NCBI GenBank assembly: GCA_964402555.1
Contig: CAYOCT010000001.1
Coordinates: 204,049 to 268,048, forward strand
Length of the DNA stretch: 64,000 nucleotides
From: an uncultured Nitrospiraceae bacterium
GTDB lineage: Bacteria > Hydrogenedentota > Hydrogenedentia > Hydrogenedentales > SLHB01
Direction of reading: 5' to 3'
In this document: one piece after another, positions 8,291 through 43,708 of the stretch
Position numbering within the stretch: position 1 is the stretch's first letter
How the letters are laid out: the number at the start of each line of letters is the position of its first letter
The notes under the pieces: model-generated
What the model saw: only the letters and a program-made list of their open reading frames with translations
Databases searched by the model: none
What the model was told of the DNA's origin: nothing
Position numbers and translations under genes: made by a program

Positions 8291-10258
8291 TCAATACCTT
8301 CTTGTTCCCCTTTCGTGCAAATTAATACTGGAAACCAAATTCCCGGTAAACCCCCAGCTTCTTCCCAGTTCCGCAACCGCTAAAGTCCATTCCTCGTCGG
8401 CGGGTAGCTCCTCATCGCGCCAAGTGAGGCTATAGAAGACTCCTGCGCATATTTCTGCGATCAGTTCCCTGAATTCTTCTTCGGAAAAGTTCCTGATTTT
8501 GTCGCGGTTGATCCAAATTTTATGTCCGCTTTCTTCAATCGCAGCAGTCTGGAACTCCCCAGGCGGCAAAAAGTCTATCTGTCGGAATCCCTCCGGAAGG
8601 ACAGGCGGCACAAAACCTACGTATTGATAATCAGACAGTATCATTCTGGGGCCACGACTCCCCCAATAATACAAAAGCCCTCGGAGCACATCGTCTTTCA
8701 AAGACGCAATTGTAGAACAGATCCACCCCAAGTAAGTCTTGTCCTGGTCACTATGGATGTTACCATAGAACCGGAGCATGAACTTATCGCCATAATTAAT
8801 CGAAATCTCCGTGTCCATGCAGCGCTCGCTGCTGTATTGCGTCCCTTCTCCTGCGGCTTCCGGCTCTAGCTCGAAATCTGGCCGCGCGGCATCGTCGTAC
8901 ATGCCAAGATATGGCTTGAGATATCGTTCACCGTAGACTTCGTTCAGCAGCATGGCGTGTTCCGGACTTGTGCTGCTCTCGATCTCGTCCAAATGTCCGA
9001 GGAAATCGTCCTTGTTCCGAAGAGAATAGATGCGCGTTCCATAATCACTGAGGACATCACGCATGAGGCTGTCGCTCAGTATTCCATGGCTTTCCTTGTC
9101 CAAAAACATCGCGTCGCAATACGGCAGGAATGTTTCAATGAAGCGGACGTCGTTGTGAAGACCTCTGGTCGGCAGACGCCTCTGGCCGGCGTGTGCGGCC
9201 CTGTTCGCGACAGTGGCCCAGATCATGGAACCGATTTTCACAAAGGGGAGCGAGGCAAAATGCTCAGACTGGAGAAACTCCCAGGCCTTCGGGAGCCACT
9301 CGTCCTCGCCAAGTCCCTTCTTCATCAAAGCGTCGCGGAACCGCATCATCACGCCGGCCTCATGTGTAGGCAGAAAAGCTGCGGCGGCACTCAGACTAAC
9401 TTGTTGAGTGCTGATTATCTCCGCTTGTGCCTTGGCCATCTCGCTGAATTGCCGAAATAGGCCTCGGAGATAGTTCTTGCCGGCGCCACCTGTTTCTTCA
9501 CGTACCCAAAAATCGAACGACTTATCCTGATCGCGCTGCCACTGCTCGAATACGGTTCGAAGCTCTTCGGCAACAGCGTCACGTGCCTCGCGCAGTTCCT
9601 TGATAGCGTCTGGAGACCATCGAAAACTCGATGAGACATTGAAGTGGTCTGTCCACCCCGTGCGATCCCCATGCAGAAAATCATCCCTGCCAAATCTGCT
9701 CTTCTGAGGTCCATGCCCAGCCAGCCAGTGTTCGAACGCCTCCGTAATGAGCCAACTGTGAATCGTCTCCGTGTCAAACCACGTTACGCCATAGCTAAGC
9801 AGCTCGTATGTCCCCTTCAGCGCATTGTATAAACTGCTGGTAGCCGACTCCGAATCGTGGAGATCAGAACTAGGGCACACCAGTAACTGCTTTTTCCCCA
9901 ACAGGTCAAGGCGCGCGAATACCTCTCTGAAGAAGGCCTCATTAGGATTTCGTCCGTGCTGCTTTGTCGCAGAATTCAGCGCGAACATCATGTTGCTTAT
10001 CACGAATTGGTCGAGGTACAGGACCTTCTTGTCAAGCTTCGGCAAACGGGTTGGCTCGTACCACTCCGGATGGGTCGGGTAAAGGCAATTTCGACACCGT
10101 CGGGAGTACTGGTGACCGGCAATGCAAATTACCCCAAAGACATCCTCGCCGCACTTCGGACACCGGATATAAGGAGGATTTACAAAATCGTTCGGCCGAA
10201 TGGTTACATATGCGGCGTCATCTGACGGTCCGCCTGTTACTTCTTCCGGGGGTGTCAT
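8291..10258 (-). CDS. Hypothetical 655-aa protein with N-terminal Zn-ribbon
   Basis: CPKCGEDV...C...CRNC cluster. Start overlaps the methyltransferase stop by 4 bp. Confidence 0.55.
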   Translation of the reverse strand: MTPPEEVTGGPSDDAAYVTIRPNDFVNPPYIRCPKCGEDVFGVICIAGHQYSRRCRNCLYPTHPEWYEPTRLPKLDKKVLYLDQFVISNMMFALNSATKQHGRNPNEAFFREVFARLDLLGKKQLLVCPSSDLHDSESATSSLYNALKGTYELLSYGVTWFDTETIHSWLITEAFEHWLAGHGPQKSRFGRDDFLHGDRTGWTDHFNVSSSFRWSPDAIKELREARDAVAEELRTVFEQWQRDQDKSFDFWVREETGGAGKNYLRGLFRQFSEMAKAQAEIISTQQVSLSAAAAFLPTHEAGVMMRFRDALMKKGLGEDEWLPKAWEFLQSEHFASLPFVKIGSMIWATVANRAAHAGQRRLPTRGLHNDVRFIETFLPYCDAMFLDKESHGILSDSLMRDVLSDYGTRIYSLRNKDDFLGHLDEIESSTSPEHAMLLNEVYGERYLKPYLGMYDDAARPDFELEPEAAGEGTQYSSERCMDTEISINYGDKFMLRFYGNIHSDQDKTYLGWICSTIASLKDDVLRGLLYYWGSRGPRMILSDYQYVGFVPPVLPEGFRQIDFLPPGEFQTAAIEESGHKIWINRDKIRNFSEEEFRELIAEICAGVFYSLTWRDEELPADEEWTLAVAELGRSWGFTGNLVSSINLHERGTRRY

Positions 10259-13200
10259 CCGCCTTCCCCCTCAGCGTCATCATCGTCAGCTGTATCCTGG
10301 CCCAGCCGAAATTTGATGTCGAAGTTGATGATGAAATCCACTTCCTCATCATTGAAGCCAAAGTGGTCGGCCAAGATGACATCTATCTTGTCGATATCTG
10401 ACTTAGACAAGCGCGGGTAGAATTCGTCGTATTCTACGACACCTGTTCTTTGGTAAGGAATCCGTCTCCGCGCTCGGTTCTTACGGAGACTCTTCATCAG
10501 ATTTTGTCCGGCCGCGCGCAACGGCCCCCCGTACGACTTCGCCAAGGCAGGCAAGTCTAGAGGAAAATCGAGGATAATTTCCCTGCCGCAGTGATATACG
10601 TCTGAGTACGTCACAAACCACTGATAGAACAAGCTGCTGTTGAGGATGGCAACCAACGCGGCCTGTTGTGCCTCAGCGGCAGCGCCAAAGATCTTGTAGT
10701 CTTCGGAACGTTTGATGCCGTCCCTTTCGCTGGAGAAATAAGGCACAAAATCCATCGCCTTAACAAAATGGGCTACTATTCTGTGACTGTACACTTCATG
10801 ATGTGACCTCTCGCTCACAAACAGGCCGAGAGACCTTTTCTCAGAACACAGCTTCGAGAGGAGCGAGAGATGAGTATCCGAATAAATCTTCGGTCTAAGA
10901 CTGACTCGGGTAAGGTGACTGCCGGATTGTGTGTACTGAATTAATGGAAAGAGCGAATCACGACCATCGGCGTACCAACGCTGGAAACGTGTGCTGAATT
11001 CAGTTGGCGAAAGCAAGTTCTTTGCTTGCAGCAAAATCGCCAGGCGGAATTTTACGCCGTTGAACAAAATAGACGGATGAGCGTCGCCTGAGTAAAAGCT
11101 TGCATGCGTCAGCAAGTGGCTGTTCACCCAAGTATCCCGTAGTGGTCGCATGCGTTCGGTAGCCACACAGCTTACCGGGACAATCATTCCAAACTTGCCG
11201 CGAGCGGATAACAATGCATACGACCGCTCGCAGATCACAGTGTAGACATTTCCACATGAAAGAGTTGCGTAACTGGCCGGAATCGGCCGGTAACCTTGAA
11301 CTTTGCTCCATTCTACATAGGGTGGATTGCCAATGATAACGTCAAAACCGCCGCCGTTCATGATGCTGTAGAACTCGATGAACCAGTGAAAGGGATGATA
11401 TGAATTCACCCACTTGCGGAACTCGGTTTCATAGGCCTTCTTCGGCCTGACGCTTTCGACTCCAATTCCATATTCTTCCGCAAGATAACGATTCAGTTCG
11501 TTCTCGAGATCTTGAAGGCGCCTCTGAAGCTCCAGCTTGTGTTCCGTGGGTACCGATGTATCACCTTCGGTCTGACGCTTTCGGAATGCATCAAAAGTTT
11601 GTTGCAAGTCAGCTGCCTTAACAGTAATTGTCTCCATCTTGTCGTCAAAGTCGAACTTGCTCTTGACGGTCTTTTCGACTTCGAGGTAGGTGGCATAGCC
11701 AATGAGCGTGTTTCCGGAGCGGATGTTGAAATCTATGTCCGGCAGGGGCTCAATGCCAAGGTTTTCTCGTACGGGATCTGGATTGACTTGTGCGGCGAGC
11801 TTGAGGAAAAGGCGGAGCTTACAGATTTCGACGGCCTCGTCCATGATATCGACACCGTAGAGGTTGTTGATCACTATGGACTTGAGGACGAAATAGCGTC
11901 GGTTAGGGTGTTTGTCCATTTCGTCCAGCACCTCGCGGAAATCGCTGAGCTTCTTCGGGCTGTGCTTCCGTTCGGAGTGCTCAAGGTCTTCGAGTAATCC
12001 CTGCATGCCGTCGAGGCAGGCGTTGTAGAGCGGTTCGAGGATGTTGAGCGCGGCGAAGAGGAAGGCGCCTGACCCGCATGTGGGGTCGAGAATCGAGATG
12101 CGTGCAAGCGCCTTCCAGAACGCGCGGACGAGTTCCGGTCCTTCGCTGTTGACTATGGCGTCATCGGCAAACTGCTCGATGTCGAGGTTCAGGGTAACGA
12201 AGTCGTTGATTGCCTGGATTCCGCCAGCGGCCAGCTTCTCTCGCAACTCGAGACACCGTTTCCGTCGTTCGGCATACTCACGCCAGGTTTCCGTAGGCAA
12301 CGCGAGATCTTCGCCATCAGGACCGGGGACGCTGGCTTGTCCCAGGTTGTACTGCCTGTTGAACATCCGTTTCTTCGGGTCGGCCATCCCCTCGCGAACG
12401 AACTCGGGCAACGTGGAATCCGGAATAATCGTTCCATCAGCGTTGACGACGCCAGAACGCACGGCCGGATAGATGTAGCGGTCGGCGTCATCACGAAGCA
12501 AGCGCCAGATGCCACCGTCCGGCCTAAATGCGATGGGACATTCCTTCTGTGCGGCGTCGAACAGATACGGGATGATGGTATTGCGACCGATATAGCCGGT
12601 GATGTCCTCCTTCGTGTAATAGGCGCCCATCTGCTTCTGGTTGATGTACTTCTCGAAGATGTAGCCGAGAACGTCCGGATTGATTTCGTTGTCGGCACGC
12701 AACGGGCGTTCGTCGAGGTGCCAGGTGTAGCTGTCGAAGAAGTCGAAGATGGCCACGAATGCTTCATCGGGGATGTCGATGCCGCTATACTGCCGCTCAA
12801 GCTCGTGCACATCGAACAGGCCACCGTTCAGGTAAGGCACTCTGCCCAAGAGCGCTTCAAGGTCGCGCGCGCGGTCTTTGGCCGGCTTGCCAAGTCCTTC
12901 GTGGAACAGACGCAGCAGGAAGAAACGATAGAATGAAAGGAATTTGCCCTTGCCTCGGCGTTCCTGGACCATCTTGAGGCGGTTGCGGAGGTAATCGGGA
13001 TCGCCGTCGAGGAATCCACGCTTCTGGATGAAGTAGACAAACATCATCCGGTTGAGCATGAGCGAGGCGTACCAGTCACGATCCGTCCGCTCGTCAATGC
13101 CTTGGATGAATTTGAGGAAAGTCTGGTGCTCTTTCTTGAAGCGGTCATAGAAGCGTTTCGTGACGCGCTCGACATCCAGCGCCGAACGTGTACGCGCCGT

Positions 13201-13653
13201 CACGTCGGTGATGGTGAGGCGCTCTTCTTCCTCAAGCTCGAATGCCAGCCCTTGAAGTTTCTCGACGAGCGCCTGCCCGGTCTGATCCGCACGATACGTA
13301 TGTTCGCGGCACGCGGCTCCTTTGCCTGCCTGGCGCTTGACCCATTGCCAGATCTGGATCGTCTGCTTTGCATCGGTGAAGACGATCAGGTGCTCGTGGG
13401 CGGACTTGCGAGCCTGTTGTTCAATCTTGCGGCGAAGGGGATACGGTGGCGCCGCACCGTCCATGCTGGGACTACACACGTAGACGACCATGCCGCATTT
13501 CTCGGCGAGCGGTTTCAGAACGTAATCGGCGCCGGCAACGGAAACAACAAGAGGCTGCGCCGCATAGCAGTTCCAACCAAGTTCCTCAATCAATAGCCCG
13601 GTGAGGTCAAACTCTCTGAGGCGTTTGCGGACGTTCTCGACACTCACAGGCAT
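10255..13653 (-). CDS. N6-adenine DNA methyltransferase, Eco57I/PglX/type IIG-like, 1132 aa
   Basis: Motif I ILDPTCGSGAFL, motif IV VIIGNPPYV, and the conserved YLNGGLFD segment. Confidence 0.8.
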   Translation of the reverse strand: MPVSVENVRKRLREFDLTGLLIEELGWNCYAAQPLVVSVAGADYVLKPLAEKCGMVVYVCSPSMDGAAPPYPLRRKIEQQARKSAHEHLIVFTDAKQTIQIWQWVKRQAGKGAACREHTYRADQTGQALVEKLQGLAFELEEEERLTITDVTARTRSALDVERVTKRFYDRFKKEHQTFLKFIQGIDERTDRDWYASLMLNRMMFVYFIQKRGFLDGDPDYLRNRLKMVQERRGKGKFLSFYRFFLLRLFHEGLGKPAKDRARDLEALLGRVPYLNGGLFDVHELERQYSGIDIPDEAFVAIFDFFDSYTWHLDERPLRADNEINPDVLGYIFEKYINQKQMGAYYTKEDITGYIGRNTIIPYLFDAAQKECPIAFRPDGGIWRLLRDDADRYIYPAVRSGVVNADGTIIPDSTLPEFVREGMADPKKRMFNRQYNLGQASVPGPDGEDLALPTETWREYAERRKRCLELREKLAAGGIQAINDFVTLNLDIEQFADDAIVNSEGPELVRAFWKALARISILDPTCGSGAFLFAALNILEPLYNACLDGMQGLLEDLEHSERKHSPKKLSDFREVLDEMDKHPNRRYFVLKSIVINNLYGVDIMDEAVEICKLRLFLKLAAQVNPDPVRENLGIEPLPDIDFNIRSGNTLIGYATYLEVEKTVKSKFDFDDKMETITVKAADLQQTFDAFRKRQTEGDTSVPTEHKLELQRRLQDLENELNRYLAEEYGIGVESVRPKKAYETEFRKWVNSYHPFHWFIEFYSIMNGGGFDVIIGNPPYVEWSKVQGYRPIPASYATLSCGNVYTVICERSYALLSARGKFGMIVPVSCVATERMRPLRDTWVNSHLLTHASFYSGDAHPSILFNGVKFRLAILLQAKNLLSPTEFSTRFQRWYADGRDSLFPLIQYTQSGSHLTRVSLRPKIYSDTHLSLLSKLCSEKRSLGLFVSERSHHEVYSHRIVAHFVKAMDFVPYFSSERDGIKRSEDYKIFGAAAEAQQAALVAILNSSLFYQWFVTYSDVYHCGREIILDFPLDLPALAKSYGGPLRAAGQNLMKSLRKNRARRRIPYQRTGVVEYDEFYPRLSKSDIDKIDVILADHFGFNDEEVDFIINFDIKFRLGQDTADDDDAEGEGG

Positions 13654-16600
13654 GCATCATCTCCCTTGAACAGCCCCATGGAACAAATGATCCGCGGTTC
13701 GTGCGTTTGCGCTTCTTCCTCAACAAGGCACAGACGGCCTTCTTCGCGCAAAACCATGACCAATTCGGCCAGCTTCTGGTCGTCAATACCGAGTCGCAGT
13801 TGACGATTCAGGGCATCGGTTGCCACCTGACGGAGCGGGTATCGATAGATCTCATCAATGACGCGGTAAAGTTCGGGCGTCTCGAAAAGCGTTCCCTTGA
13901 TCTCCTCGGCATGCCGTTTGAGCCGTTCGTAAGTTCTAAACCGCGCGCCGCTGGGCCGGCCCAATTGCCCGCCGACCTGGCGTTCTTCCGTAGCGATATG
14001 CTGGATTGCTTCCCGCACGAGGGGGTGATGCCTGGGATTACGCGGAATAGCCGGAGTTTCGAGAGGGCATTCGGCGATTCGGAGGATTTCAAACTGGGAT
14101 TCTGTGATGCTGGCGCCGCCTGTGTCCACGTAAGCGAGGGCGTCGTTGTCTTCCGCCGTACGGGCATAGACGAGCACGCCTTCCGGCTTGCGTTCGGTCG
14201 GGGCGTGCGCGCGAGTTGAATAGGCCACGTCCGGCAGTTCGGGCACGATCTTTTCCAGTTCCGGATTGGAGTCAATGGCGTTCTTCCAGATCTGGTATGC
14301 GTATGACGCCAAGTCGACTTCCGCGTCATCCTCGCCGTCAAGGATACCGGCCTTTTCGGTAAACAGGTCGCGGACGCTCTGCTCGTTGTTATCGTCCTCG
14401 AAGAACGACTCATCCGTACCGACCACTTCGGCATTTTCGCGAAGTCTGCTGCGAACCCTGGAACGCAAGCGAATGATGCGCTCGACTCCCTCCGCGGGAA
14501 GGAATGAGTAACAGAGTATGTCCTCCGCTTTCTGACCGATACGGTCCACGCGGCCGGCGCGCTGGATCAGGCGAATGATAGCCCACGGTAGATCAAAGTT
14601 AACGACTATGGCGCAATCTTGCAGGTTTTGGCCTTCGCTCAAGATATCCGTGGCAACCAGCACGCGCAATTCCTGGGCCGGCGATATCCGGTCTCGCTTG
14701 TTGTTGCTGACCGGACTGAACCGCCACGCCAGTTCGGTTGGGTTCGCGGAATCGGAGGTTGCGCCCGCCACACCGTCTATACCCCTCGCCTTAAGCTGAG
14801 TCTCAAGATAGCGGACCGTATCCGCGAACTGTGTGAAGATTAGGACCTTCTCCATGGCATGTCGTTCGGCAAGCAGATCGACCAACGCCTGCAATTTGGC
14901 ATCGCGCTCTCGGTCCCATTCTCCTGTCCGGGCCAGCAGTTTGAGTAAGGCTTCCGCGTCCGCGCGCAGATGCTTGGCGAGTGCTTCAGTGAACAAGCCA
15001 GGCCTAATCCATTTGAAAGACTTGCGATGCTCTGTTTCGTAATCAACGTATACTTCTGCCGCACGACGCCGGAAATCAGCTTCATTGCGAAGCGTCGTCC
15101 CTGGGACAGAAGCGATAGGCTGGTCGTCGTTGTTGTCGGCGTCATCGGCAAACAGGTCGCTCGTGGCTTCTTCGGCATCCTCGTCAGTCATCCGAGTATC
15201 AAGCATTTCGGAAGTCTGTGAACCCAACGGCAGAGGCAGGCCGTTCTCGATGGCATGCAGGTAAACAAAATTACGCAGAATGTGCCGCTCGACGGACTGA
15301 ACGAAAGCCATGCCGCAGCTTTCAAGGCGTTTGAACAGGTTCGTGCGGCAGAATCCCATGAGCCGTTTCCCGGCGCGAGACAAGTCTTGCAGCACTCGCG
15401 CCTCGGCCTGGGTGGGCGGTTGCTCAGGAGTCGGCACTTCATAGTTGCCCAAGCCATAACGGGGCAAGTACAGTCCGTTGATGATATCCACAACGGGCTT
15501 GGCGTAAAGCTGGGCGTACTGATCGTTCTTGTCTTTGTCGTTGATTGTAAACTTCACCGTCCTTGGGAGACGTTCCGGGAAATATGAGCGCGTGCCGTCC
15601 TCAAACGTCAGATAACACCTGCCATTATCCGCGTCGACGGTAGCGTAATTGTCCTTGATGAAGCTGCGGGTCCGGCGCACGAGGTAGAGGCGCATCAAAT
15701 CGCGCCAGTCGTCGGCATGCTCGCTCTTCTCGAACGCGGAAAGCGACCTGACCGAACACTGATGCCGCCGGATGAATTCGGTCTCGCTGATTTGACGCAA
15801 TAACGCTTCCGGCCGGATTCCGATGTCACGATCTTCTTCAACGAACAGGCGCAGCTGGCTGGAGAGATCGAGGTAGGTCTTGTTGTACGGCGTGGCGGTC
15901 AGCAGGATGCACTTGCTGTCGTTCGCGCGGATGTAGTCCTGGATGACGCGGTAGCGGCGGCCTTCACGATTGCGCAGGTTGTGGCTCTCGTCCAAGATGA
16001 TGAGACGATAACGCCGGAGGTCAGGCAATTGTCTGATGACGCGGCTAATCGAGAGCACGCGTCCGCGAAGGCGATACTGTTCCCGGTAGTCTTCCCACAT
16101 GGAGACGAGATTCTTGGGACAGATGATTAGGGTTTCGAGATCGTGGTCATCCTCGAAGATGCGCGCAAGTGCGGTGGCCATGAGCGTCTTGCCGAGACCG
16201 ACGACGTCACCCACGAGCACGCCGTTTCGGCGCAGCAGATGATGCGCGGCGATCTTCACGGCAGCGACCTGGTAGTCGAAAAGCTTGTTGCCGAAATCCT
16301 TCGGAATGCGGAACTCAGACAGGCCGGAACGCGCCTCCCGCGACAGGTGATAGGCGATCTTGATGTAGATTTGATAAGGCGGAATCGGTTCCTCGCGAGC
16401 CCAGCTTTCGTCGATAATCGCGACCAACTCATTCGAGACGTCGATGCAGAAGCGGTCGTTCCAGCGATCCTCAAACCACTTCGCGAGTTTCTGGCACGCG
16501 TCGAGGTCCATGACGTCGATGTTGAGCTCGCCCTGATTCACGAGGCCGGCGAGCGTCAAGTTGCTGCTGCCCAGATATCCCACGATGGGGTTGATCGGGT

Positions 16601-17048
16601 CGGGACGGAAGAGCAGGTAAAGCTTGGCGTGAAGCGGATGCCGCAGGAAGAGCTTCACCACGACCTTCTTGGCGCGGATTTGCGCCACGAGGCGGCGAAG
16701 CGCTTCCTCATCTTCATTGGTGGGTGTGCCAAACGTAAGTTGCTGGCGAAATTCCTGCGCAAGCTGCTTCTTGAGGCGTGCCGCGGTAGCGTTGTCTATT
16801 TCGGCGCCGCCGTCGACGACGCTCATTGCTTCGCGTAACTGGTCTTGCGGTAAACGCTGCATTCCCACGAGAAGCCGGCAGCATTGCCCCGCATCGCTTC
16901 CTGCCCATTTCTCGACCTGGGTGTGAAGCTGCTTCCATCCGCGCAGATTGAAATAGCCGACGCAAAAGTCGGCCCGGTCGGAACGCGCGAGGGTTTCCTG
17001 CAGTGCCTTGGATAGATTGGCCTCGATGTTGTCGAAAACTCTAGGCAT
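13644..17048 (-). CDS. PLD-family nuclease domain fused to an SNF2-family helicase, 1134 aa
   Basis: HxK PLD motif HPLHAKLYLL. Helicase motifs GLGKT and DESHNLRN plus a C-terminal helicase block (NFDLPW). Overlaps the methyltransferase start by 10 nt. Confidence 0.8.
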   Translation of the reverse strand: MPRVFDNIEANLSKALQETLARSDRADFCVGYFNLRGWKQLHTQVEKWAGSDAGQCCRLLVGMQRLPQDQLREAMSVVDGGAEIDNATAARLKKQLAQEFRQQLTFGTPTNEDEEALRRLVAQIRAKKVVVKLFLRHPLHAKLYLLFRPDPINPIVGYLGSSNLTLAGLVNQGELNIDVMDLDACQKLAKWFEDRWNDRFCIDVSNELVAIIDESWAREEPIPPYQIYIKIAYHLSREARSGLSEFRIPKDFGNKLFDYQVAAVKIAAHHLLRRNGVLVGDVVGLGKTLMATALARIFEDDHDLETLIICPKNLVSMWEDYREQYRLRGRVLSISRVIRQLPDLRRYRLIILDESHNLRNREGRRYRVIQDYIRANDSKCILLTATPYNKTYLDLSSQLRLFVEEDRDIGIRPEALLRQISETEFIRRHQCSVRSLSAFEKSEHADDWRDLMRLYLVRRTRSFIKDNYATVDADNGRCYLTFEDGTRSYFPERLPRTVKFTINDKDKNDQYAQLYAKPVVDIINGLYLPRYGLGNYEVPTPEQPPTQAEARVLQDLSRAGKRLMGFCRTNLFKRLESCGMAFVQSVERHILRNFVYLHAIENGLPLPLGSQTSEMLDTRMTDEDAEEATSDLFADDADNNDDQPIASVPGTTLRNEADFRRRAAEVYVDYETEHRKSFKWIRPGLFTEALAKHLRADAEALLKLLARTGEWDRERDAKLQALVDLLAERHAMEKVLIFTQFADTVRYLETQLKARGIDGVAGATSDSANPTELAWRFSPVSNNKRDRISPAQELRVLVATDILSEGQNLQDCAIVVNFDLPWAIIRLIQRAGRVDRIGQKAEDILCYSFLPAEGVERIIRLRSRVRSRLRENAEVVGTDESFFEDDNNEQSVRDLFTEKAGILDGEDDAEVDLASYAYQIWKNAIDSNPELEKIVPELPDVAYSTRAHAPTERKPEGVLVYARTAEDNDALAYVDTGGASITESQFEILRIAECPLETPAIPRNPRHHPLVREAIQHIATEERQVGGQLGRPSGARFRTYERLKRHAEEIKGTLFETPELYRVIDEIYRYPLRQVATDALNRQLRLGIDDQKLAELVMVLREEGRLCLVEEEAQTHEPRIICSMGLFKGDDACL

Positions 17049-19994: not shown

Positions 19995-20501
19995 CTACCG
20001 GTATGAAGGGCGAGGTGAATGACGATAGCGAGAGGTGGACGGGCTTCGGATGCCGTATTGAGGTCTGGATTGAACGGGGTCGTATTCTCTGTTTCGGATT
20101 CTGAGCGGGTAATGATTGGGCGGTAGCGGCAGACGTTTGAAGAGGTTATCGGGCCAGTCTTGAATAAGGTCCCAGGGATAGAGCGAAATAACGTGCAGGT
20201 TGTTGGCGGCATAGGCAGCTTTCTTGATGGCAGTTCGGATGTCATAGTCTTGGTTGCCAACGCGGCCGTAGTACTCGATATGAAGGTTGAATTCGGGAAG
20301 GTAGAAGTCGGGGCGGAGGGTTCGGTCTTTGCCATTGTCGTTGACGGTGACCCTTGGTTCGTAGATGAATGGGATGCCGTAGTCGTCGAGCGTGCCCGCT
20401 ATGTGACGTTCGCCCCGTGACCTGAAGCGGTCCGAGGTTTGGTTTTCAGTCCTAGTCCTTTCCTCAAGTGCGGCCTGCATTCCTCTTCTGGGCGTTCTCA
20501 A
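19995..20501 (-). CDS. DUF559/Vsr-like PD-(D/E)xK endonuclease-fold protein with a low-complexity tail
   Basis: YGIPFIYEPRV...RPDFYLPEFNLHIEYYG matches the DUF559 core pattern. Confidence 0.45.
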   Translation of the reverse strand: MRTPRRGMQAALEERTRTENQTSDRFRSRGERHIAGTLDDYGIPFIYEPRVTVNDNGKDRTLRPDFYLPEFNLHIEYYGRVGNQDYDIRTAIKKAAYAANNLHVISLYPWDLIQDWPDNLFKRLPLPPNHYPLRIRNREYDPVQSRPQYGIRSPSTSRYRHSPRPSYR

Positions 20502-20708
20502 GCACCGGTTCTATAAAAAACCTTCGGTGGATGTTCATGCAAACCAGTTAAGATTGCCCGCGCCGTCATGAGCGTCTTGGGGTTCCCCACCCACCCGCCC
20601 AGCTCAGGGGCTCGACCTTCGGCGAGCCCCTGTCTTCCCGCCCACCCAACCCCAAAGGGTGTGGACGTGCTTCGCGCGTCCTGACCGATAGGACGTGGCG
20701 GCGCCCCC

Positions 20709-20773
20709 CCGAAGACTTGCCGGTTATCATAATCCGAACCCACTGTCCAGTGTTCCGTGTCGGAAAACTGATG
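20709..20773 (+). repeat. Conserved two-hairpin structured element, copy 1 (5' part diverged)
   Basis: GAAGACTTGCCGG...GTAATCCGAACCCACTGTCC followed by hairpin CAGTGTTCCG-TGT-CGGAAAACTG and then GATG. Confidence 0.55.
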
Positions 20774-21169
20774 TTTGACTTGGCCAGAGGGAAGAAGCAG
20801 AACGAAGGTCGCCTCTTTTACCCGCATTCATTCCTTCGCAAGTTCGCAATCATCGAGGCTTGGGCATGCGTCAAGCCGCGAGCTTGCACCACGTCTTTCG
20901 AGTGTCATTCCAAGGCGAGACCCGGTTCTCTGTCGGACGGATGCACCGATGCACGATACATATCCGCGTTCTGTAAATGAGTCACGGTGTTCATCGGCGG
21001 CGTGTTTTTTTCCTGCTTCCAGCCGCCAGTTGCCTTTCTTATGAAGCCAGCCTTAAGGGCTTTGGCCGGCCCTTTGTGCCCTGTTACGTTCGTCTTTCAT
21101 TTTCCTCATTTTCTACCTCCGGTGATTTGTTCCAGCAGGGGTGTGAACAAATCACGGAGGTAAACGAAA

Positions 21170-21451
21170 ATGAAAAGTCAATTAGTGAACGTACAGGGTA
21201 AAGGGCCTATAGCCAAAGCTAAGGCTGGCAAGTTTCAAGTCAGCATCTGGCACTGGAAGAAAATCATACCGCCGCCCGATGAAATGAAAGACCTTTTCGC
21301 AGAACGCGAATTCGATATATATCGTGCGTGCATCCGGTTCAGTCAGTGGAACCGGGTGACTCGCTCATGGAATGAACAATCAATTTGGTGCAGCATCGAC
21401 GACTTGCGCAGCCTTGTTCAAACCATCGATGAACTTAACGCGCAGGAATGA
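21170..21451 (+). CDS. Small hypothetical protein, 93 aa
   Basis: Strong RBS GGAGGTAAACGAAAATG. Distant resemblance to the 27461..27736 product. Confidence 0.5.
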   Translation: MKSQLVNVQGKGPIAKAKAGKFQVSIWHWKKIIPPPDEMKDLFAEREFDIYRACIRFSQWNRVTRSWNEQSIWCSIDDLRSLVQTIDELNAQE

Positions 21452-21516
21452 ACGCGGGAGGGCAACCTTCCGCTTCTTCCTCTCTGGCTTTTTTGTGGTC
21501 TATGCGACACGGGAGC

Positions 21517-21596
21517 GGGTGTCGGATTACCCGAAGACTTGCCGGTCCTCGTAATCCGAACCCACTGTCCGGTTTTCCGTGCCGGAAAACCGATGA
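21517..21596 (+). repeat. Conserved two-hairpin structured element, copy 2
   Basis: GGGTGTCGGATTACCCGAAGACTTGCCGGTCCTCGTAATCCGAACCCACTGTCC, then a perfect 10-bp hairpin CGGTTTTCCG-TGC-CGGAAAACCG, then GATG. Confidence 0.6.
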
Positions 21597-21849
21597 GGGC
21601 GCCTATAGGGTCTGGCGACCTTGTGATAATCGCGCAGGGAATACCAACCCCTGCCTACCGCGGAAATCGCGATTTCCACCCCGGCGCGGAATCCGCTCTT
21701 CCCGCGCTCGGTCTCGCGCAACAGGGCCGATGTATGGGGCAAGGCGGCGCAGAGATATCGCAGAGATATCGTAGATTCTTCTTGGGCTAGATTGTCCTGT
21801 TCTCAACCTACAGGCTTCACCTCAACGATTTTCATTCCCCGTCATGAGA

Positions 21850-22221
21850 ATGAAAATCGTTCAACGAGGTGAAACCATGAGAACAGAACTAAACCCAAGA
21901 AGAATCCGCGTTCAGGTTGAACGCGCCGCAGCACAGAAAGACATCGACCCAGAAGAACTCTGGCTCGACCAAGATATCGCGCCGGAAGAGCTTATACGGC
22001 TAGACCCGCTCGACATCACCTATGAGATTGTCGCGCAGGCAGAAAAGCCTGAGAGTACAGACCCGCTCTTTCTGGGAATTTCCGGCAGGGAGTTAAGTCT
22101 CAGGCAGGAAGAGCAGGAACTCAAGCAGATGAGGCATGAGCTTCAGGCTTCCCATGGCCAGTCCGAAGAGACCGCGCTCATGAACTGGTTTACTCGTGTG
22201 CGGAAAGCAGGCTCATCATGA
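21850..22221 (+). CDS. Small acidic hypothetical protein (paralog A, MKIVQRGE...)
   Basis: Paralogous to 23371..23706. The ATG lies inside the right arm of a 20-bp inverted repeat. Confidence 0.55.
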   Translation: MKIVQRGETMRTELNPRRIRVQVERAAAQKDIDPEELWLDQDIAPEELIRLDPLDITYEIVAQAEKPESTDPLFLGISGRELSLRQEEQELKQMRHELQASHGQSEETALMNWFTRVRKAGSS

Positions 22222-22234
22222 GCCTGCTTTCTTA
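22205..22234 (+). terminator. Rho-independent terminator-like hairpin overlapping the paralog A stop
   Basis: GCAGGCTCAT-CATGAGCCTGC palindrome followed by TTTCTT. Confidence 0.5.
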
Positions 22235-22240
22235 CATCGC

Positions 22241-22309
22241 AGAGCGGGCGTGAGATTCTGTGGGAATCTCAGCCCACTGTCCGGTTCTCTTGACAGAGAA
22301 CCGATGCAA
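22241..22309 (+). repeat. Conserved two-hairpin structured element, copy 3
   Basis: AGCGGGCGT, then hairpin GAGATTC-TGTGGG-GAATCTC, then GCCCACTGTCC, then hairpin CGGTTCTC-TTGACA-GAGAACCG, then GATG. Confidence 0.6.
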
Positions 22310-22391
22310 TTCACCGACTTGCGTGCGGTTCCTTGTGGCGCCGCGATTCTCTGTCCTTTCAAATGAACAGAGAATCGCGGAGGTGTTGCAA

Positions 22392-22877
22392 ATGAGTCTC
22401 GTCAAGTTAGAAGAACTTCATTGGGGCAGTCTATCGCTCAAAGTTCTGCGTTCTGGGGTCGATGGCAGTCTTTTCGTTGCTCTGGACCCTATTGGAAAAG
22501 GGGAAAGCATTCGTGGCCCTTTCCTTTCAGAGCAAGACCTCAGCCGGGTAGTGTCTTTGGTAAGGCGCCACGGAAACTCTTCGCCTGAACCCGAGTTTCC
22601 GCTGGAGAGAGTGCCGCACTCCTCTCCGTCCTGTGATGCGCGCGCAGCAGAGACCGAAATCAAAGAGGCCGTCCGAAGAGCACAAGACCCGAGTGTGTCC
22701 ACGAAAGGCATAATCACGGTGCTTCCAACCATGCCTCCGTGGAGGTATCGTCACACATGCCCTGTCTGCGGGTGCCACGTCCAATCGCGGCTTTGTCTCG
22801 GAAGCACAGAGTTGAAGCTCTGCGCAGGATGCGAGCATGTCGAAAGCGTGTGTGTCAACGCGACTCGTGAGGGATGA
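22392..22877 (+). CDS. Hypothetical protein with C-terminal CxxC...CxxC zinc finger
   Basis: RBS GGAGG before the ATG at 22392. C-terminus HTCPVCGCHVQSRLCLGSTELKLCAGCEH. Confidence 0.5.
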   Translation: MSLVKLEELHWGSLSLKVLRSGVDGSLFVALDPIGKGESIRGPFLSEQDLSRVVSLVRRHGNSSPEPEFPLERVPHSSPSCDARAAETEIKEAVRRAQDPSVSTKGIITVLPTMPPWRYRHTCPVCGCHVQSRLCLGSTELKLCAGCEHVESVCVNATREG

Positions 22878-23077
22878 ACATGCCGCTCAAGACCGAGTGT
22901 GATTCAAATGGGAGGACGCGTCTCCGTTGGACCTGTCCGCTGTGCATTTACGAACTCAGGTTCCATGCGCACGATGCAGGCGAAGTGGCTTTCTTTGTCG
23001 TGCGGCACCTCTCTGGCGTGCATGCGTTGGCGCATTCAGATATGCGGTTGTTGGAACCGGAACTGGGTCTTGACTGA
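22874..23077 (+). CDS. Small Cys-containing hypothetical protein, 67 aa
   Basis: 4-bp overlap with the upstream gene. Contains CPLC. Confidence 0.35.
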   Translation: MNMPLKTECDSNGRTRLRWTCPLCIYELRFHAHDAGEVAFFVVRHLSGVHALAHSDMRLLEPELGLD

Positions 23078-23370
23078 CGCGCCCAATTGGCGTTGTGCTT
23101 GGCTGACGGGGTACGGCAAGCCGACCCGAAATGAATTTCAGGCCCGTGTGTTCAGCTTGTGTTGTTGAGTGTCGTTCTTCAGGGAACCTGTTTTGCGGCG
23201 TTATACCACGGAACGCGAACCTCTATTGGTTCTGTTCCTCTTCAGTGTTGTTCACCTCAACGATTTTCAAGGCGTTCGCGGGAAAACCGGCTTCATTGTG
23301 ATTTCCCCTTTGAGGACCGGTCAGGTATTCCCTGAAATCACATGACCGGATTTCCCCGCGCCACCTCACC

Positions 23371-23706
23371 ATGAAAATCGTTCAACGAGGTGAACAAACA
23401 ATGCAAACAGAACCGAACCATGAATTCAGCCGCGTTCAGGAAGGACGCGCCGCGAATACCAGACTAGACACCGAAGAGCTTTGGCTCAATTCGGATATGG
23501 TGCCCGAGAAATACATCGAATTGGCCGAACACCCGGAGCTTGCCGACCCCGTGCTTGCCGGCCTTCCTTCACGCGAAATGAGCTTGCAGGAAGAGTCGCT
23601 GTTCTTGGAGCAAGTGAAGGCCGAGCTTCGCGCCAAGCACAATGCAAATCCAATTCAGCCTGCCGACCGACGGGGCGGCGCGTTTTCAGAAGAAGGCTCT
23701 AATTGA
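23371..23706 (+). CDS. Small acidic hypothetical protein (paralog B, MKIVQRGE...)
   Basis: Paralogous to 21850..22221. The ATG lies inside the right arm of an inverted repeat (left arm 23250-23269). Confidence 0.55.
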   Translation: MKIVQRGEQTMQTEPNHEFSRVQEGRAANTRLDTEELWLNSDMVPEKYIELAEHPELADPVLAGLPSREMSLQEESLFLEQVKAELRAKHNANPIQPADRRGGAFSEEGSN

Positions 23707-23720
23707 GCCTTCTTTCTTTT
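23692..23720 (+). terminator. Rho-independent terminator-like hairpin after paralog B
   Basis: GAAGGCTC-TAATT-GAGCCTTC followed by TTTCTTTT. Confidence 0.5.
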
Positions 23721-23727
23721 GGACCCA

Positions 23728-23812
23728 GAAGCGGGTGTCGGATTGCCCGAAGACTTGCCGGTCTTCGTAATCCAAACCCACTGTCCGGTTCTCTTGACAG
23801 AGAACCGATGGT
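23728..23812 (+). repeat. Conserved two-hairpin structured element, copy 4
   Basis: GAAGCGGGTGTCGGATTGCCCGAAGAC-TTGCCG-GTCTTCGTAATCCAAACCCACTGTCC, then CGGTTCTC-TTGACA-GAGAACCG, then GATG. Confidence 0.6.
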
Positions 23813-23918
23813 GGGGTTGTCAGTCTCTTCTTGAGCGAACCGCCTTCAGCCAACAGCGGGCGCCAGGGGTTCCGGGAATCTTCCAAGGATTGGGAAGATT
23901 CCCGGAGGTGTTTACAAG

Positions 23919-24224
23919 ATGGTTTGTGGAGATTCGTGTGCGGACGGCGAATTAGATGACCTTCTACATCAGCTTCCGGAGCCGAAGCAAGCTGACTATG
24001 GATTGTGTCCTCATTGCGACAGCACAAAAGGGCGATGGTGGGGATTTAGCGTCCGAAAGGACGGGACATTCATACGCCGTCGAATGTGTCGTTGGTGCAA
24101 GAGAACCTATACGGGGGCATGGTATCGTAACGTCCACAGAAGTGTTAACCTGAATGAAGCAAAGAGAATCATGCGCTCTAAGAAAGACTTCACGGCTTTC
24201 GAGGACGACCTTGTATTCCAATGA
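23919..24224 (+). CDS. Small Zn-ribbon protein, 101 aa
   Basis: RBS GGAGG. CPHC...CRWC cysteine pairs. Confidence 0.5.
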   Translation: MVCGDSCADGELDDLLHQLPEPKQADYGLCPHCDSTKGRWWGFSVRKDGTFIRRRMCRWCKRTYTGAWYRNVHRSVNLNEAKRIMRSKKDFTAFEDDLVFQ

Positions 24225-24493
24225 ACGCGCGCTTCTGCTCAGGCTGGCGGTGAGACATGAGCTTCCAGTCATCGCACAAAGACGACTATGGACTGTTTCG
24301 GACGGAATGGGGATTGTCGATGTGAGAGCATTAGGAGGCTTGCTGTCGGAACGGCGCGGAATAGCGACTCCGAATCTCCTTGCGATTCGGAGGTTCAATT
24401 GAGTCGCCGCTAAAGCGGCGACGCTCAGAGACTTCCTTACCTTCCCGGGCCGTTGCTCTTATGTCTTCATCGCAGGACACGAAACAGTCTTGG

Positions 24494-32117: not shown

Positions 32118-32201
32118 GTAGTCCCACTTTGCAGTGACACGAAAAGTTTAAGTTCTGTCTCCGGTTTACGCGTCCAGTAGGTTGTACTTGAGGTGAGGAA
32201 G

Positions 32202-33290
32202 ATGGACGTTCAGGCGTATCTCGAGGGGCGGAAGGAGCAGATCAAGAAAGAGGCTGGAAAGGTCAAGGATTTCTCGGTGTTCGATTTCAGCTACATCCCG
32301 TCCCAGCCGGTCATGCGCGAGGAGGCGAAGGTCCTCATTGATGCCGTACTGCGGTATGACCATACGGGCATACCCAAGAACCTGGCGCTGTTCGGCAGCC
32401 GGGGGTCTGGAAAAACGCTCATGGTCCGTTACCTCGCCAAGGAGCTTCATTCTGAAGGTGGCGTGAAGATTCTCTACGCCAATGTCCGGAACCACAACAC
32501 AAGTTTCAAAATACTCGAGTGTTTACTGCATGCGCAGGCCAAGGGCGCATCGTTCGCCGACCTCTTCTCTGCCTTCCGCGCGAGGTATGCTGGCAGGACC
32601 GTCGTGGTCCTTGATGAGATCGACCTCATAGGGCCGCGCGATAAGAACATGGAGATTCTTTACCGCCTATCCCGTAGCCGCAACAACTATATGGCGGTCC
32701 TTCTTTCAAACAGTCCGCGACTGATGCAGAAACTCGACGCGTCCACGCGCAGCACGCTTCAACCGGAGATCGTGCATTTCAAGGACTATGATGCGGAGCA
32801 GATGTTTGCGATCCTGGTTGATCGGGCAAACGACGGGCTTGTTCGCTTTGATGAGGAGACGCTTCGAAAGATTGCGGCGCTCGCGGTCCGCAACACCAAC
32901 TCGGATGTCCGCGTTGCCATCAAGACGCTCTTTTACGCCGCCACCGAAACCGGACTGTCCGTCGAGCATGCATTCGAACGCGCCACGCAGGACGTGGTCG
33001 TGGACGTCATCCATGACTTAAACGACAAATCGCTTCTGATTCTTGAGAGCTTGCGGAGAACAAAGAATGGGTTCGTCAAAGATGCCTACCAGACGTATAA
33101 GGACCTGAGCGCAGCCATTGGCGAACCGCCGTTTTCATACATGCATTTCTACAACAATCTGAGCCACCTGCAATCCTGCGGGCTCATCCTGCTGATGTCC
33201 ACCAAAGTCAATAGAACGTACACAAATCAGATCCGTCTTCTTTTTGACCCGGCGATCGCTGCCGAGACGTTCAAGCAGCGGTTTCGATGA
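32202..33290 (+). CDS. Orc1/Cdc6-type AAA+ ATPase with C-terminal winged helix
   Basis: VFDFSYIPSQPVMREEAKVLIDAVL...NLALFGSRGSGKT and Walker B VVVLDEIDL. RBS AGGTGAGG. Confidence 0.75.
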   Translation: MDVQAYLEGRKEQIKKEAGKVKDFSVFDFSYIPSQPVMREEAKVLIDAVLRYDHTGIPKNLALFGSRGSGKTLMVRYLAKELHSEGGVKILYANVRNHNTSFKILECLLHAQAKGASFADLFSAFRARYAGRTVVVLDEIDLIGPRDKNMEILYRLSRSRNNYMAVLLSNSPRLMQKLDASTRSTLQPEIVHFKDYDAEQMFAILVDRANDGLVRFDEETLRKIAALAVRNTNSDVRVAIKTLFYAATETGLSVEHAFERATQDVVVDVIHDLNDKSLLILESLRRTKNGFVKDAYQTYKDLSAAIGEPPFSYMHFYNNLSHLQSCGLILLMSTKVNRTYTNQIRLLFDPAIAAETFKQRFR

Positions 33291-43369: not shown

Positions 43370-43605
43370 GTATCCGCAACACTATGCTCGAAATTGCCCG
43401 CAAGGCAATCCTGCACCGGGCGTCTCTGGACGGATACGCGCCGGACGAGTACGACCCCGCGGAAGACGGCGAAGGATACGTCGTGTCGCTGCTCATTGCG
43501 CTTCGGCACTGGTGCGAAGCGCATGACATCGACTGGCGGGCGGACATCGAACGGGCAGAAGCCTTGTTCACTGAAGACTTGGCCGAGTCTGAAGCTATTC
43601 CCTGA
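43366..43605 (+). CDS. Hypothetical protein
   Basis: 79-aa ORF. Confidence 0.4.
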   Translation: MSIRNTMLEIARKAILHRASLDGYAPDEYDPAEDGEGYVVSLLIALRHWCEAHDIDWRADIERAEALFTEDLAESEAIP

Positions 43606-43708
43606 GACGCACACTCAGTGCTACACCCTGCAAGGGGCGGAACTGTGCCTTAGCCGGCATGGGGCCGCCCCTTGTCTTTCTCTCTCAACAGAAAGGAGTC
43701 CCAATGAT

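Follow-up and report, generated by a model that had tools for sequence, protein, structure and literature searches.

Expression of the E. coli rpoS gene is held back by an inhibitory 5′ leader, in which upstream 5′-UTR sequence forms a helix with the SD and the AUG, so that initiation is blocked until DsrA, RprA and ArcZ open the helix. Other leaders are processed by RNase III, which unmasks the ribosome site, as in the lambda N leader and at the R0.3 site of T7 gene 0.3; the latter gene encodes a small acidic protein. For IS10 and IS50, fold-back inhibition of read-through transcripts was reportedly described by Davis, Simons and Kleckner in 1985. At the DNA level, the leading regions of conjugative plasmids carry the Frpo/ssi/ssp ssDNA promoters and the ssp2 roadblock (PMC11541004, PMC12672017, bioRxiv 10.64898/2026.01.09.698686), and a folding energy of < −75 kcal/mol has served as the threshold for mining ssDNA promoters (PMC12672017).

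The locus described here is a cluster of five small, co-oriented genes at positions 21170–24224 of a 64-kb window (the whole stretch of DNA that was analyzed). The cluster is located between a Replic_Relax gene and a DUF87 ATPase gene of a conjugative or integrative element, and each of its genes has a hairpin that abuts or occludes the SD (z −3.8 to −5.5). The element encodes relaxase-like (Replic_Relax) and T4CP-like (TrwB_AAD_bind) proteins; SLT, ArdC-N (faint) and GP88 are found at related loci. Two genes of the cluster encode similar acidic proteins:

21877–22221, plus strand: acidic protein gene, copy A (114 aa, pI 4.8)
23401–23706, plus strand: acidic protein gene, copy B (101 aa, pI 4.6)

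These proteins belong to an unannotated family of ~80 clusters at 50% identity, for which no Pfam or PHROG match and 0 Foldseek matches in the PDB were obtained. Two AlphaFold predictions (pLDDT 66 and 71) are all-helical. Pfam and PHROGs searches with the small proteins of the cluster were likewise without a match.

A first-pass annotation of the sequence had noticed a 20-bp inverted repeat at both acidic genes. The repeat is real and far above chance: the 64-kb window has precisely two occurrences of the left arm, TTCACCTCAACGATTTTCA, at 21816–21834 and 23251–23269, where 0.02 are expected by chance. The right arm, ATGAAAATCGTTCAACGAGGTGAA, is found at 21850–21873 and 23371–23394 and is 100% identical between the copies, while the coding sequences that flank it share ~72% identity at the DNA level and 46% at the protein level. 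The two proteins are paralogues. The arms pair over 11 bp and 8 bp with a 4-nt bulge and are 15 nt apart in copy A and 101 nt apart in copy B. When folded as RNA, a check proposed in the annotation, both copies proved stable (−30.6 kcal/mol, z −6.1 for copy A; −66.8 kcal/mol, z −7.1 for copy B). The extent assigned to the repeat has to be revised, since its arms make up just P1, the middle tier of a far larger conserved hairpin.

The start codon had been placed inside the repeat, at an ATG (21850 in copy A) that has no SD 5′ of it and is not conserved. This ATG is missing in six of the 14 lineages (L016, L016s, L017, L157/L161, L165), is followed by an in-frame stop in L001 (ATG AAA ATC GTT AAA TGA), and the majority of predicted homologues begin at the downstream ATG, which yields 114 aa. 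The right arm itself holds an SD, GAGGTGA (21866–21872 and 23387–23393, both inside P1), 4–7 nt 5′ of ATG 21877 in copy A and ATG 23401 in copy B. The true starts are ATG 21877 and ATG 23401, and the in-repeat ATG is not a start codon. A uORF beginning at the in-repeat ATG was ruled out, since this ATG is unconserved, lacks an SD and is followed by the in-frame stop in L001. The idea of a translationally occluded start thus survives with a different target: the SD, the downstream AUG and the first codons would be occluded rather than the in-repeat ATG.

A stretch of ~60–180 nt upstream of the acidic genes can pair with the SD, with the AUG and with the first 30–280 nt of the coding sequence, which makes P1 one tier of a long imperfect hairpin. 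Its parts in the two copies are as follows:

21744–21837, plus strand: left (5′) arm of hairpin A, with the anti-SD CACCTC in 21816–21834 and with lower tiers that can pair with the AUG and codons 1–17
21848–21930, plus strand: right (3′) arm of hairpin A, with the non-start ATG (21850), the SD (21866–21872), the ATG (21877–21879) and codons 1–17
23247–23403, plus strand: long-form leader core of copy B, with P1 (23251–23269/23371–23394), P2–P4, the SD (23387–23393) and ATG 23401
23190–23460, plus strand: extended hairpin B, in which the lower tiers pair the upstream flank with the AUG and the early coding sequence

The fold of 21690–21990, which contains hairpin A, has an energy of −128.6 kcal/mol (z −9.05), and that of 23130–23520, which contains hairpin B, −144.9 kcal/mol (z −6.8). 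Local alignment of the arms matched 21774–21837 with 21848–21906 in hairpin A and 23227–23305 with 23334–23420 in hairpin B. As in an SD-sequestering leader, the SD and the start codon are base-paired in these folds with an upstream anti-SD on the same strand. The core of copy B is a 155-nt “long” form that consists of P1–P4 and an apical three-way junction, with the invariant TTCATTGTGATTTC/GAAATCACATGA in P2–P4, and is matched by covariance model R1 with 121 bits (E 3e-30). The leader of copy A is a short form with the interior missing, which R1 matches at 21812–21879 with 55.5 bits (E 1.7e-12). Seven of the 20 most stable 300-nt windows of the 64 kb lie within 21.0–23.9 kb, although the GC content is lower there.

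The hairpin recurs 5′ of acidic-gene homologues in at least 14 metagenomic lineages, all from one element family (Replic_Relax, DUF87 ATPase, ParA), including one Hydrogenedentes MAG. In every lineage, the SD and the true AUG are in the 3′ arm and the anti-SD is in the 5′ arm. The arms are present in orthologous loci; the region of the left arm is free of gene calls in related contigs, and stops and frameshifts interrupt its reading on the minus strand. Absence of the arms from orthologues, or a left arm lying inside another conserved gene, were the two outcomes that the first-pass annotation had named as speaking against its proposal, and neither applies. In an alignment of 12 core sequences, 86% of cells are paired, compared with 37–51% when the partners are slid, and 18 pairs show compensatory two-sided change (6.5 ± 1.7 after shuffling, 3–9 after sliding). 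The lower tiers, which involve the AUG and codons 1–17, contain 10 compensatory pairs, against 4.3 ± 1.3 in shuffled and 1–4 in slid alignments; here, the coding changes AGA to AAA and AGA to CAA are matched by changes in the upstream arm. Pairing is thus conserved in homologues through compensatory substitutions, another property of an SD-sequestering leader. The 4-nt bulge keeps its position with a variable sequence (CAAC, AAAT, AAAC, AGAC, AACC, TTCA, CATC, CAAT), and the apical local hairpins P2 and P5b covary, which together argue for a selected single-strand fold rather than plain homogenisation of the arms. The two arms evolve in concert, the own right arm being the best fit for the left arm in 11 of the 14 lineages. 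In L166, a distant homologue, the stem sequence is unrelated, yet a perfect 13-bp anti-SD/SD stem is formed.

Three further hairpin structures are found at the starts of the remaining small genes:

20821–21458, plus strand: imperfect gene-sized palindrome around the 93-aa gene (CDS 21170–21451), arms 20821–21132 and 21145–21458
22327–22397, plus strand: SD-occluding hairpin of the 161-aa gene (start 22392), −32.7 kcal/mol, z −4.3
23858–23914, plus strand: SD-occluding hairpin of the 101-aa gene (start 23919), −32.2 kcal/mol, z −3.8

The arms of the 93-aa gene palindrome (314 nt) are identical at 245 of 314 positions, with a score of 140 against a null maximum of 24, and the apex hairpin spans the SD GGAGGT and the AUG (−35.5 kcal/mol, z −5.5). 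One alternative is that the structures are a by-product: inverted duplications that arose repeatedly, by template switching at a small 5′ hairpin, and conversion between the arms would have created palindromes around these genes and homogenised them, and the extended arms would have no function. Arm length is very variable, being 314 nt at the 93-aa gene in the window versus 15–18 bp in other lineages and extending from +30 to +280 into the acidic gene (to +280 in L016). Complementarity of the 93-aa gene to its own arm is 89%, compared with 75% identity to the orthologous arm; overall, the values are 87–89% for own arms and 75% between orthologous arms. In addition, a weak trace of the N-terminus can still be recognized at the protein level in the upstream arm (L001, E 0.001). 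A by-product would not, however, be expected to have its center always just 5′ of the SD at five unrelated genes, nor to combine a conserved bulge position with covarying apical hairpins, which differ from simple mirror symmetry; and the core is kept in at least 14 diverged lineages, even when similarity of the stem sequence is gone, as in L166. We consider this origin distinctly unlikely. Under the explanation that we prefer (below), the gene-length arm extension in some lineages is probably a secondary, lineage-specific expansion or homogenisation around the functional core. The possibility that the upstream arm is a divergent coding paralogue was ruled out by stops, frameshifts and the missing ELWLD motif.

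The sequence GTGATTT...AAATCAC is common to the apex of the 93-aa gene hairpin and to P4 of the acidic-gene leader, two leaders that are otherwise unrelated, and the P4 sequence is invariant across acidic-gene leaders with the exception of the second L164 copy. Inverted repeats such as this one could be double-stranded DNA operators, bound by an element-encoded dimeric repressor that co-regulates the cluster. However, the half-sites are spaced by anything from 12 to about 45 nt, P4 is missing from the short forms, and in the second L164 copy it is wholly replaced with pairing retained. Covariation retains pairing, not sequence, and we regard an operator as very improbable.

Downstream of both acidic genes, a hairpin followed by a T-rich tail is present, in agreement with the earlier description of a terminator for each gene, though the “clean” T-run claimed for both is not seen in copy A, whose tail is weak; orthologues show a clean T7–T9 run. 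The terminators are followed by a conserved two-hairpin motif, the D element, which is found 3′ of the acidic gene, shows covariation in its alignment and is described by model R2:

22203–22237, plus strand: terminator-like hairpin of copy A, with the stop codon inside its perfect 14-bp stem, then a T-rich tail
23690–23722, plus strand: terminator of copy B, whose stem encodes the conserved C-terminal EEGS, then TTTCTTTT
22241–22311, plus strand: D element after copy A (R2 76.8 bits, E 1.4e-14)
23728–23815, plus strand: D element after copy B (R2 98.6 bits)
20690–20778, plus strand: degenerate D element upstream of the 93-aa gene palindrome (R2 67.5 bits)
21512–21600, plus strand: D element between the 93-aa gene and hairpin A (R2 104.3 bits)

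A 14-mer from the D element has 110 matches in viral contigs. The D element is not the attC of an integron cassette, as there are no R″/R′ core sites (RYYYAAC / GTTRRRY) in the D alignment and no integrase domain among the scanned ORFs. Pairing of the D-element loop with the leader was dropped as a candidate, the complementarity being merely 5–6 nt.

The repeat had also been suggested to be a MITE-like mobile cassette. It is present in two copies in the window, and the order of leader–gene–terminator–D units differs between related elements. Yet the 64 kb contain just these two arm pairs, each attached to a paralogous gene, and the structure is always tied to the 5′ end of a gene homologue. 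The right arm (a 24-mer) has zero exact matches among 185,579 species-representative genomes, and the 28 viral-contig matches of the core 17-mer are chance matches, all of them without the second half of the motif. Moreover, the arms are not transposon termini: one is the SD region of the gene itself and the other the mirror of that region. A MITE-like unit is thereby effectively refuted; the looser notion of a cassette, in which leader–gene–terminator–D units are reshuffled, keeps some life.

The best explanation of the hairpins is a cis-acting translational lock on establishment-type genes, and we place about half of our confidence in it. The repeat would be the tier that pairs the SD within a long 5′ leader, and this leader would fold back onto the translation initiation region of its own gene. 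The 5′ arm carries the anti-SD CACCUC and further segments able to pair with the spacer, with the AUG and with the first codons. A helix of −30 to −130 kcal/mol would thus trap the ribosome-binding site of any transcript with both arms and block its translation. While the structure, its conservation, the joint evolution of its arms and the placement of the SD and the AUG in the 3′ arm are observed, its action at the RNA level and the repression of translation are inferred. The same design would operate on all five small genes of the cluster, keeping them silent in the resident state. Release might occur by processing of the long duplex, e.g., by RNase III, by a trans-acting factor that opens the duplex, or through transcripts that start within the hairpin and hence lack the 5′ arm. 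A search of the hairpins of the window, L016, L010 and L001 for promoters revealed no σ70-like −35/−10 site, a consensus that may not be the one used in this phylum. Further points count against a lock: the strand comparisons given below do not favor the sense strand, the gene-length arms (to +280 in L016 and 314 nt at the 93-aa gene) go beyond what it needs, and the greater similarity of the arms to each other than to their orthologues could be explained by gene conversion or repeated inverted duplication.

Such a lock would resemble the rpoS leader in that the SD and the AUG are paired with 5′-UTR sequence further upstream, and initiation would be blocked until the helix is opened. Unlike in rpoS, the helix is far longer and more stable, reaching tens to hundreds of nucleotides into the coding sequence, the design is repeated on five adjacent mobile-element genes, and no activating sRNA is known here. 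With IS10 and IS50 it would share translationally silent transcripts that enter from upstream and are complementary to their own ribosome-binding site, open transcripts from an internal promoter, and mobile-element genes in need of tight silencing; the genes here are, in contrast, not transposases, the arms mirror coding sequence, and the internal promoter is only hypothetical. In the lambda N and T7 0.3 leaders, too, a long duplex lies 5′ of an early gene's initiation region or overlaps with it; cleavage is hypothetical in our case. The product of T7 0.3 is likewise small and acidic.

A structured 5′ UTR with the SD in a helix is also found in Rfam riboswitches and in ROSE and FourU thermometers. 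The Rfam search gave no match at the gathering score and nothing meaningful at an E-value threshold, the best sub-threshold match being CopA (26 bits versus a gathering score of 60) on a neighboring hairpin. A thermometer was rejected by inference, as the helices are far too stable. A riboswitch is unlikely: almost the whole inner domain is paired into a rod, the domain is absent, and thus dispensable, in short forms, and its P4 is fully replaced in the second L164 copy. Antisense control of the FinP/traJ or hok/sok (type I TA) kind was rejected as well: no minus-strand promoter-like site was seen in or near the leader, and the 101–114-aa protein is acidic and predicted to be helical, versus the small hydrophobic toxin of hok-like systems.

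The main rival of the lock is a hairpin in ssDNA. Instead of acting in RNA, the palindromes might form hairpins during conjugation in the strand that is transferred (template, minus). They might serve there as a promoter or priming signal of the Frpo/ssi/ssp kind, or hold up second-strand synthesis as a roadblock, with an early burst of expression as the result. Large leading-region stem-loops have both functions, ssDNA promoter and replication roadblock, in the F plasmid, and the structures at hand are similarly imperfect stem-loops of ~300 nt before small, co-oriented, unannotated or anti-defence-type genes that lie beside conjugation genes. The relaxase-like and T4CP-like genes of the element, the genes found at related loci and the single orientation of all small genes fit such a role. 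Folded with DNA parameters, 300-nt windows reach the published mining threshold (about −75 kcal/mol per 300 nt) at 21001–21300 (−75.9/−75.7 kcal/mol) and 21701–22000 (−76.6 kcal/mol, minus strand), against a background of −47 ± 9 kcal/mol; other windows of the cluster have values of −68 to −74 kcal/mol. Folding is slightly better on the minus strand, with an MFE below that of the plus strand in 12 of 13 leaders, and 136 arm mismatches are compatible with minus-strand wobble versus 67 with plus-strand G-U, where base composition alone predicts ~55:45. A hand count from the pair table of the lower-stem alignment gave ~19 G-U versus 26 A-C cells. Neither strand is clearly singled out as the acting one by the MFE values, by the arm alignments with their composition expectation, or by a tally of wobble versus A-C in the consensus pairs.

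Against this role, composition largely explains the strand asymmetry, and main stems of just 14–19 bp in three of the five hairpins are too short for a promoter. In none of the arms scanned (the window, L016, L010, L001) does a stem reconstitute recognizable −35/−10 boxes, though the consensus of this phylum may differ. Blastn of 20400–24400 against the 72,556 plasmids of PLSDB, which include Frpo-bearing ones, gave no match, and searches of PLSDB with the acidic protein and the Replic_Relax protein also gave none. The known Frpo/ssi elements are intergenic repeats that neither mirror the downstream gene nor are centered on its SD, whereas the present hairpins include the SD, the AUG and coding sequence; the host phylum and the relaxase type differ too. 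We judge a function in ssDNA to be rather unlikely. Both mechanisms may also operate side by side, transcription of double-stranded DNA yielding locked transcripts and initiation at an ssDNA hairpin yielding open ones. In a more elaborate version, to which we give little credence, the palindromes would serve a non-proteobacterial conjugative element as a state-sensing switch. While the element is established as double-stranded DNA, every transcript through the cluster would lock itself and possibly be cut as dsRNA; upon entry, the palindromes would form hairpins in the incoming strand, attract RNA polymerase or primase close to the apex and hold up synthesis of the second strand, so that mRNAs lacking the 5′ arm would briefly be available for translation of small establishment or anti-defence proteins, with the D elements as unit boundaries.

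If the translational lock is real, it shows how a mobile element of a little-studied phylum silences a cluster of small “entry” genes by means of leaders that copy the start region of each gene. It would also contribute two structured motifs that are new, namely the 155-nt leader and the D element, and make the acidic protein family a candidate for establishment or anti-defence functions. Should the hairpins act in ssDNA, the ssDNA-promoter and roadblock logic of F-like plasmids would extend to very different elements with a different architecture, and the state-sensing switch, if true, would represent a new, promoter-sequence-independent class of ssDNA-dependent expression device.

The left arm of the inverted repeat, TTCACCTCAACGATTTTCA (19 nt), occurs exactly twice in the window, against a chance expectation of 0.02, and the right arm, ATGAAAATCGTTCAACGAGGTGAA, is identical between copies A and B of the small acidic gene.

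Inverted-repeat arms
21816-21834, left arm of copy A, exact match to TTCACCTCAACGATTTTCA
23251-23269, left arm of copy B, exact match to TTCACCTCAACGATTTTCA
21850-21873, right arm of copy A, ATGAAAATCGTTCAACGAGGTGAA
23371-23394, right arm of copy B, ATGAAAATCGTTCAACGAGGTGAA

The arms pair through 11 + 8 bp with a 4-nt bulge between, and the RNA folds are stable in both copies (-30.6 kcal/mol, z -6.1 in A; -66.8 kcal/mol, z -7.1 in B), which bears out the first-pass annotation of an inverted repeat at each gene. Coding DNA 3' of the right arm is ~72% identical between the copies, and the proteins are 46% identical. The left arm is an anti-Shine-Dalgarno (SD) sequence (CACCUC); the right arm ends in a canonical SD, GAGGTGA, with a second ATG located 4-7 nt further on (21877 in A, 23401 in B). 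This downstream ATG is the start of most homologous proteins in public data (114 aa). At L001, one of the related metagenomic loci, an in-frame stop follows the upstream, in-repeat ATG, and that ATG is missing from L016 (both copies), L017, L157/L161 and L165. The start codon had been placed inside the repeat; the true starts are 21877 and 23401, and the supposed N-terminus "MKIVQRGE" is therefore 5' UTR.

Both proteins are acidic (pI 4.8 for A and 4.6 for B) and, as had been proposed, each gene ends in a terminator: a hairpin, in whose stem the conserved C-terminal EEGS is encoded, followed by a T-rich tail. Since the stems (22203-22231 and 23690-23715) are made of conserved C-terminal codons (K/E-A/E-G-S-S/N-stop), the protein C-terminus is coupled to the terminator. 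Codons 11-17 (RVQVERA) also form a local hairpin (window 21907-21925, minus strand; L010 3031-3049; L001 6034-6050), kept in three lineages, which looks terminator-like because a T-rich run follows it on the minus strand.

The repeat arms are one tier within a far larger structure. A 150-160-nt core recurs in twelve full-length leaders, all from independent contigs; it comprises P1 (the arms described here), P2, P3, an invariant P4 (TTCATTGTGATTTC/GAAATCACATGA) and, at the apex, a three-way junction. Copy A, which lacks P2-P5, represents a short form; L016/L162 likewise has a long copy beside a short one. Pairing continues below P1, between the upstream flank and a stretch made up of the spacer, AUG and first codons, and the extended hairpins fold at -128.6 kcal/mol (A, 21690-21990; z -9.05) and -144.9 kcal/mol (B; z -6.8). 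Local arm alignments run into the CDS, as far as +30 to +34 nt for the window and close relatives, +54 in L166, +82 to +84 in L164/L165, +115 to +170 in L015/L016s/L004 and +280 in L016. This variable length probably stems from arm homogenisation (through conversion or repeated inverted duplication), but that leaves the SD-centred core unaccounted for. The upstream arm was also considered as a coding paralogue, which was ruled out.

L164 carries a second copy of the inner domain (3100-3199) with P2-P5 architecture and a completely different P4 sequence, 5' of a further very small acidic ORF (56 aa) whose motif ...AEHVELADSVL resembles AEQPELADPVL of the acidic family. Two unrelated leaders, those of the 93-aa gene (21123-21160) and the acidic gene (P4, 23293-23345), carry GTGATTT...AAATCAC at their hairpin apex; this may mark a protein-binding site common to both or be coincidental.

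The arms co-evolve. In a covariance-model alignment of the core, 86% of cells are paired, compared with 37-51% when partners are slid, and 18 pairs show double-sided change versus 6.5 +/- 1.7 in shuffles. For the lower tiers, interior-excised constructs gave compensatory change at 10 pairs versus 4.3 +/- 1.3 in shuffles. The best fit of a left arm is its own right arm in 11 of 14 lineages.

Hairpins abut or cover the SD at all five small genes between 21170 and 24224 (z -3.8 to -5.5). The 93-aa gene (21170-21451) lies inside a gene-sized imperfect palindrome (20821-21458) with 314-nt arms (20821-21132 versus 21145-21458) that are 89% complementary to each other and only 75% identical to the L162 orthologues; its counterpart in L001, L004 and L166 has an SD hairpin of only 15-18 bp.

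Another conserved structured motif, named the D element, is found 10-30 nt 3' of the acidic-gene terminator in almost every locus. It consists of a GGGYGU...ARCCC stem, ACUGUC, a CGGUn5/n5ACCG stem and AUG, with compensatory change at 10 of 21 pairs in eight sequences; it matched no Rfam family and lacks attC core sites.

D elements
Window: 20690-20778, 21512-21600, 22241-22311, 23728-23815
L001 6369-6459; L003 448-519; L010 3365-3435
L015 1852-1940; L016 3327-3417; L162 5464-5544
L166 5318-5393; L157 8240-8314; L017 3183-3260

Homologues of the acidic gene are always located within one element family, ordered as a Replic_Relax protein, a series of small genes sharing one orientation, a convergent DUF87/HerA-like ATPase and ParA. 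The sole named-genome match is a Candidatus Hydrogenedentes MAG, and PLSDB returned none. Between Replic_Relax and the small genes, a 168-aa protein (19995-20501, minus strand) with weak PHROG matches to Holliday-junction resolvase and HNH or homing endonucleases keeps its position; L004 has a 159-aa gene at the same spot. The window also carries a Cdc6/Orc-like AAA ATPase with a C-terminal winged helix (32193-33290), a GP88-family protein (43394-44323; also in L164) and a TrwB-like type IV coupling protein (61493-63970), a combination that fits a single large conjugative or integrative element across most of the window. Related loci carry SLT and, faintly, ArdC-N. At 10255-17048 (minus strand) there is a defence-like pair, DISARM- or BREX-like, of an SNF2 helicase with a PLD domain (1134 aa) and a methyltransferase of the Eco57I/MmeI type (1132 aa), with Schlafen/AlbA_2, DUF3644, DprA-like and PIN-like genes and IS21 IstB to its left.

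The best-supported reading, which we hold with about even confidence, is that the leader acts as a cis translational lock: with both arms present, a transcript would be unable to present the SD and AUG. The initiation region is invariably in the 3' arm, at five unrelated genes; pairs covary, and this includes coding changes that the upstream arm tracks; the bulge keeps its position while its sequence varies; and the apical local hairpins, which are not simple mirror symmetry, covary. The distant homologue L166 has a perfect 13-bp anti-SD/SD stem of unrelated sequence. Alternatively, much as in F-like plasmids, the hairpin may act in transferred single-stranded DNA, where it would be a promoter, a priming site or a roadblock. 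Folding energies in DNA-parameter 300-nt windows do reach the published threshold (PMC12672017), the 21.0-23.9 kb region contains seven of the 20 lowest-energy windows in the 64 kb, and folding is slightly more favourable on the minus strand. This strand asymmetry, however, comes mostly from composition, the leader does not resemble known Frpo elements, and a σ70-like search of the arms (window, L016, L010 and L001) found no -35/-10 boxes, though that consensus may not be the host phylum's; we consider this main rival unlikely.

The translational lock could be released by RNase III processing, by a trans-acting opener or by transcripts starting between the arms (IS10-style fold-back insulation). 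Neither the leader nor the small proteins matched Rfam, Pfam, PHROG families or PDB folds. The leader would work like an inhibitory leader of the rpoS or IS10 type, from which it differs in its scale, in its mirroring of the gene itself and in its use across the whole cluster.
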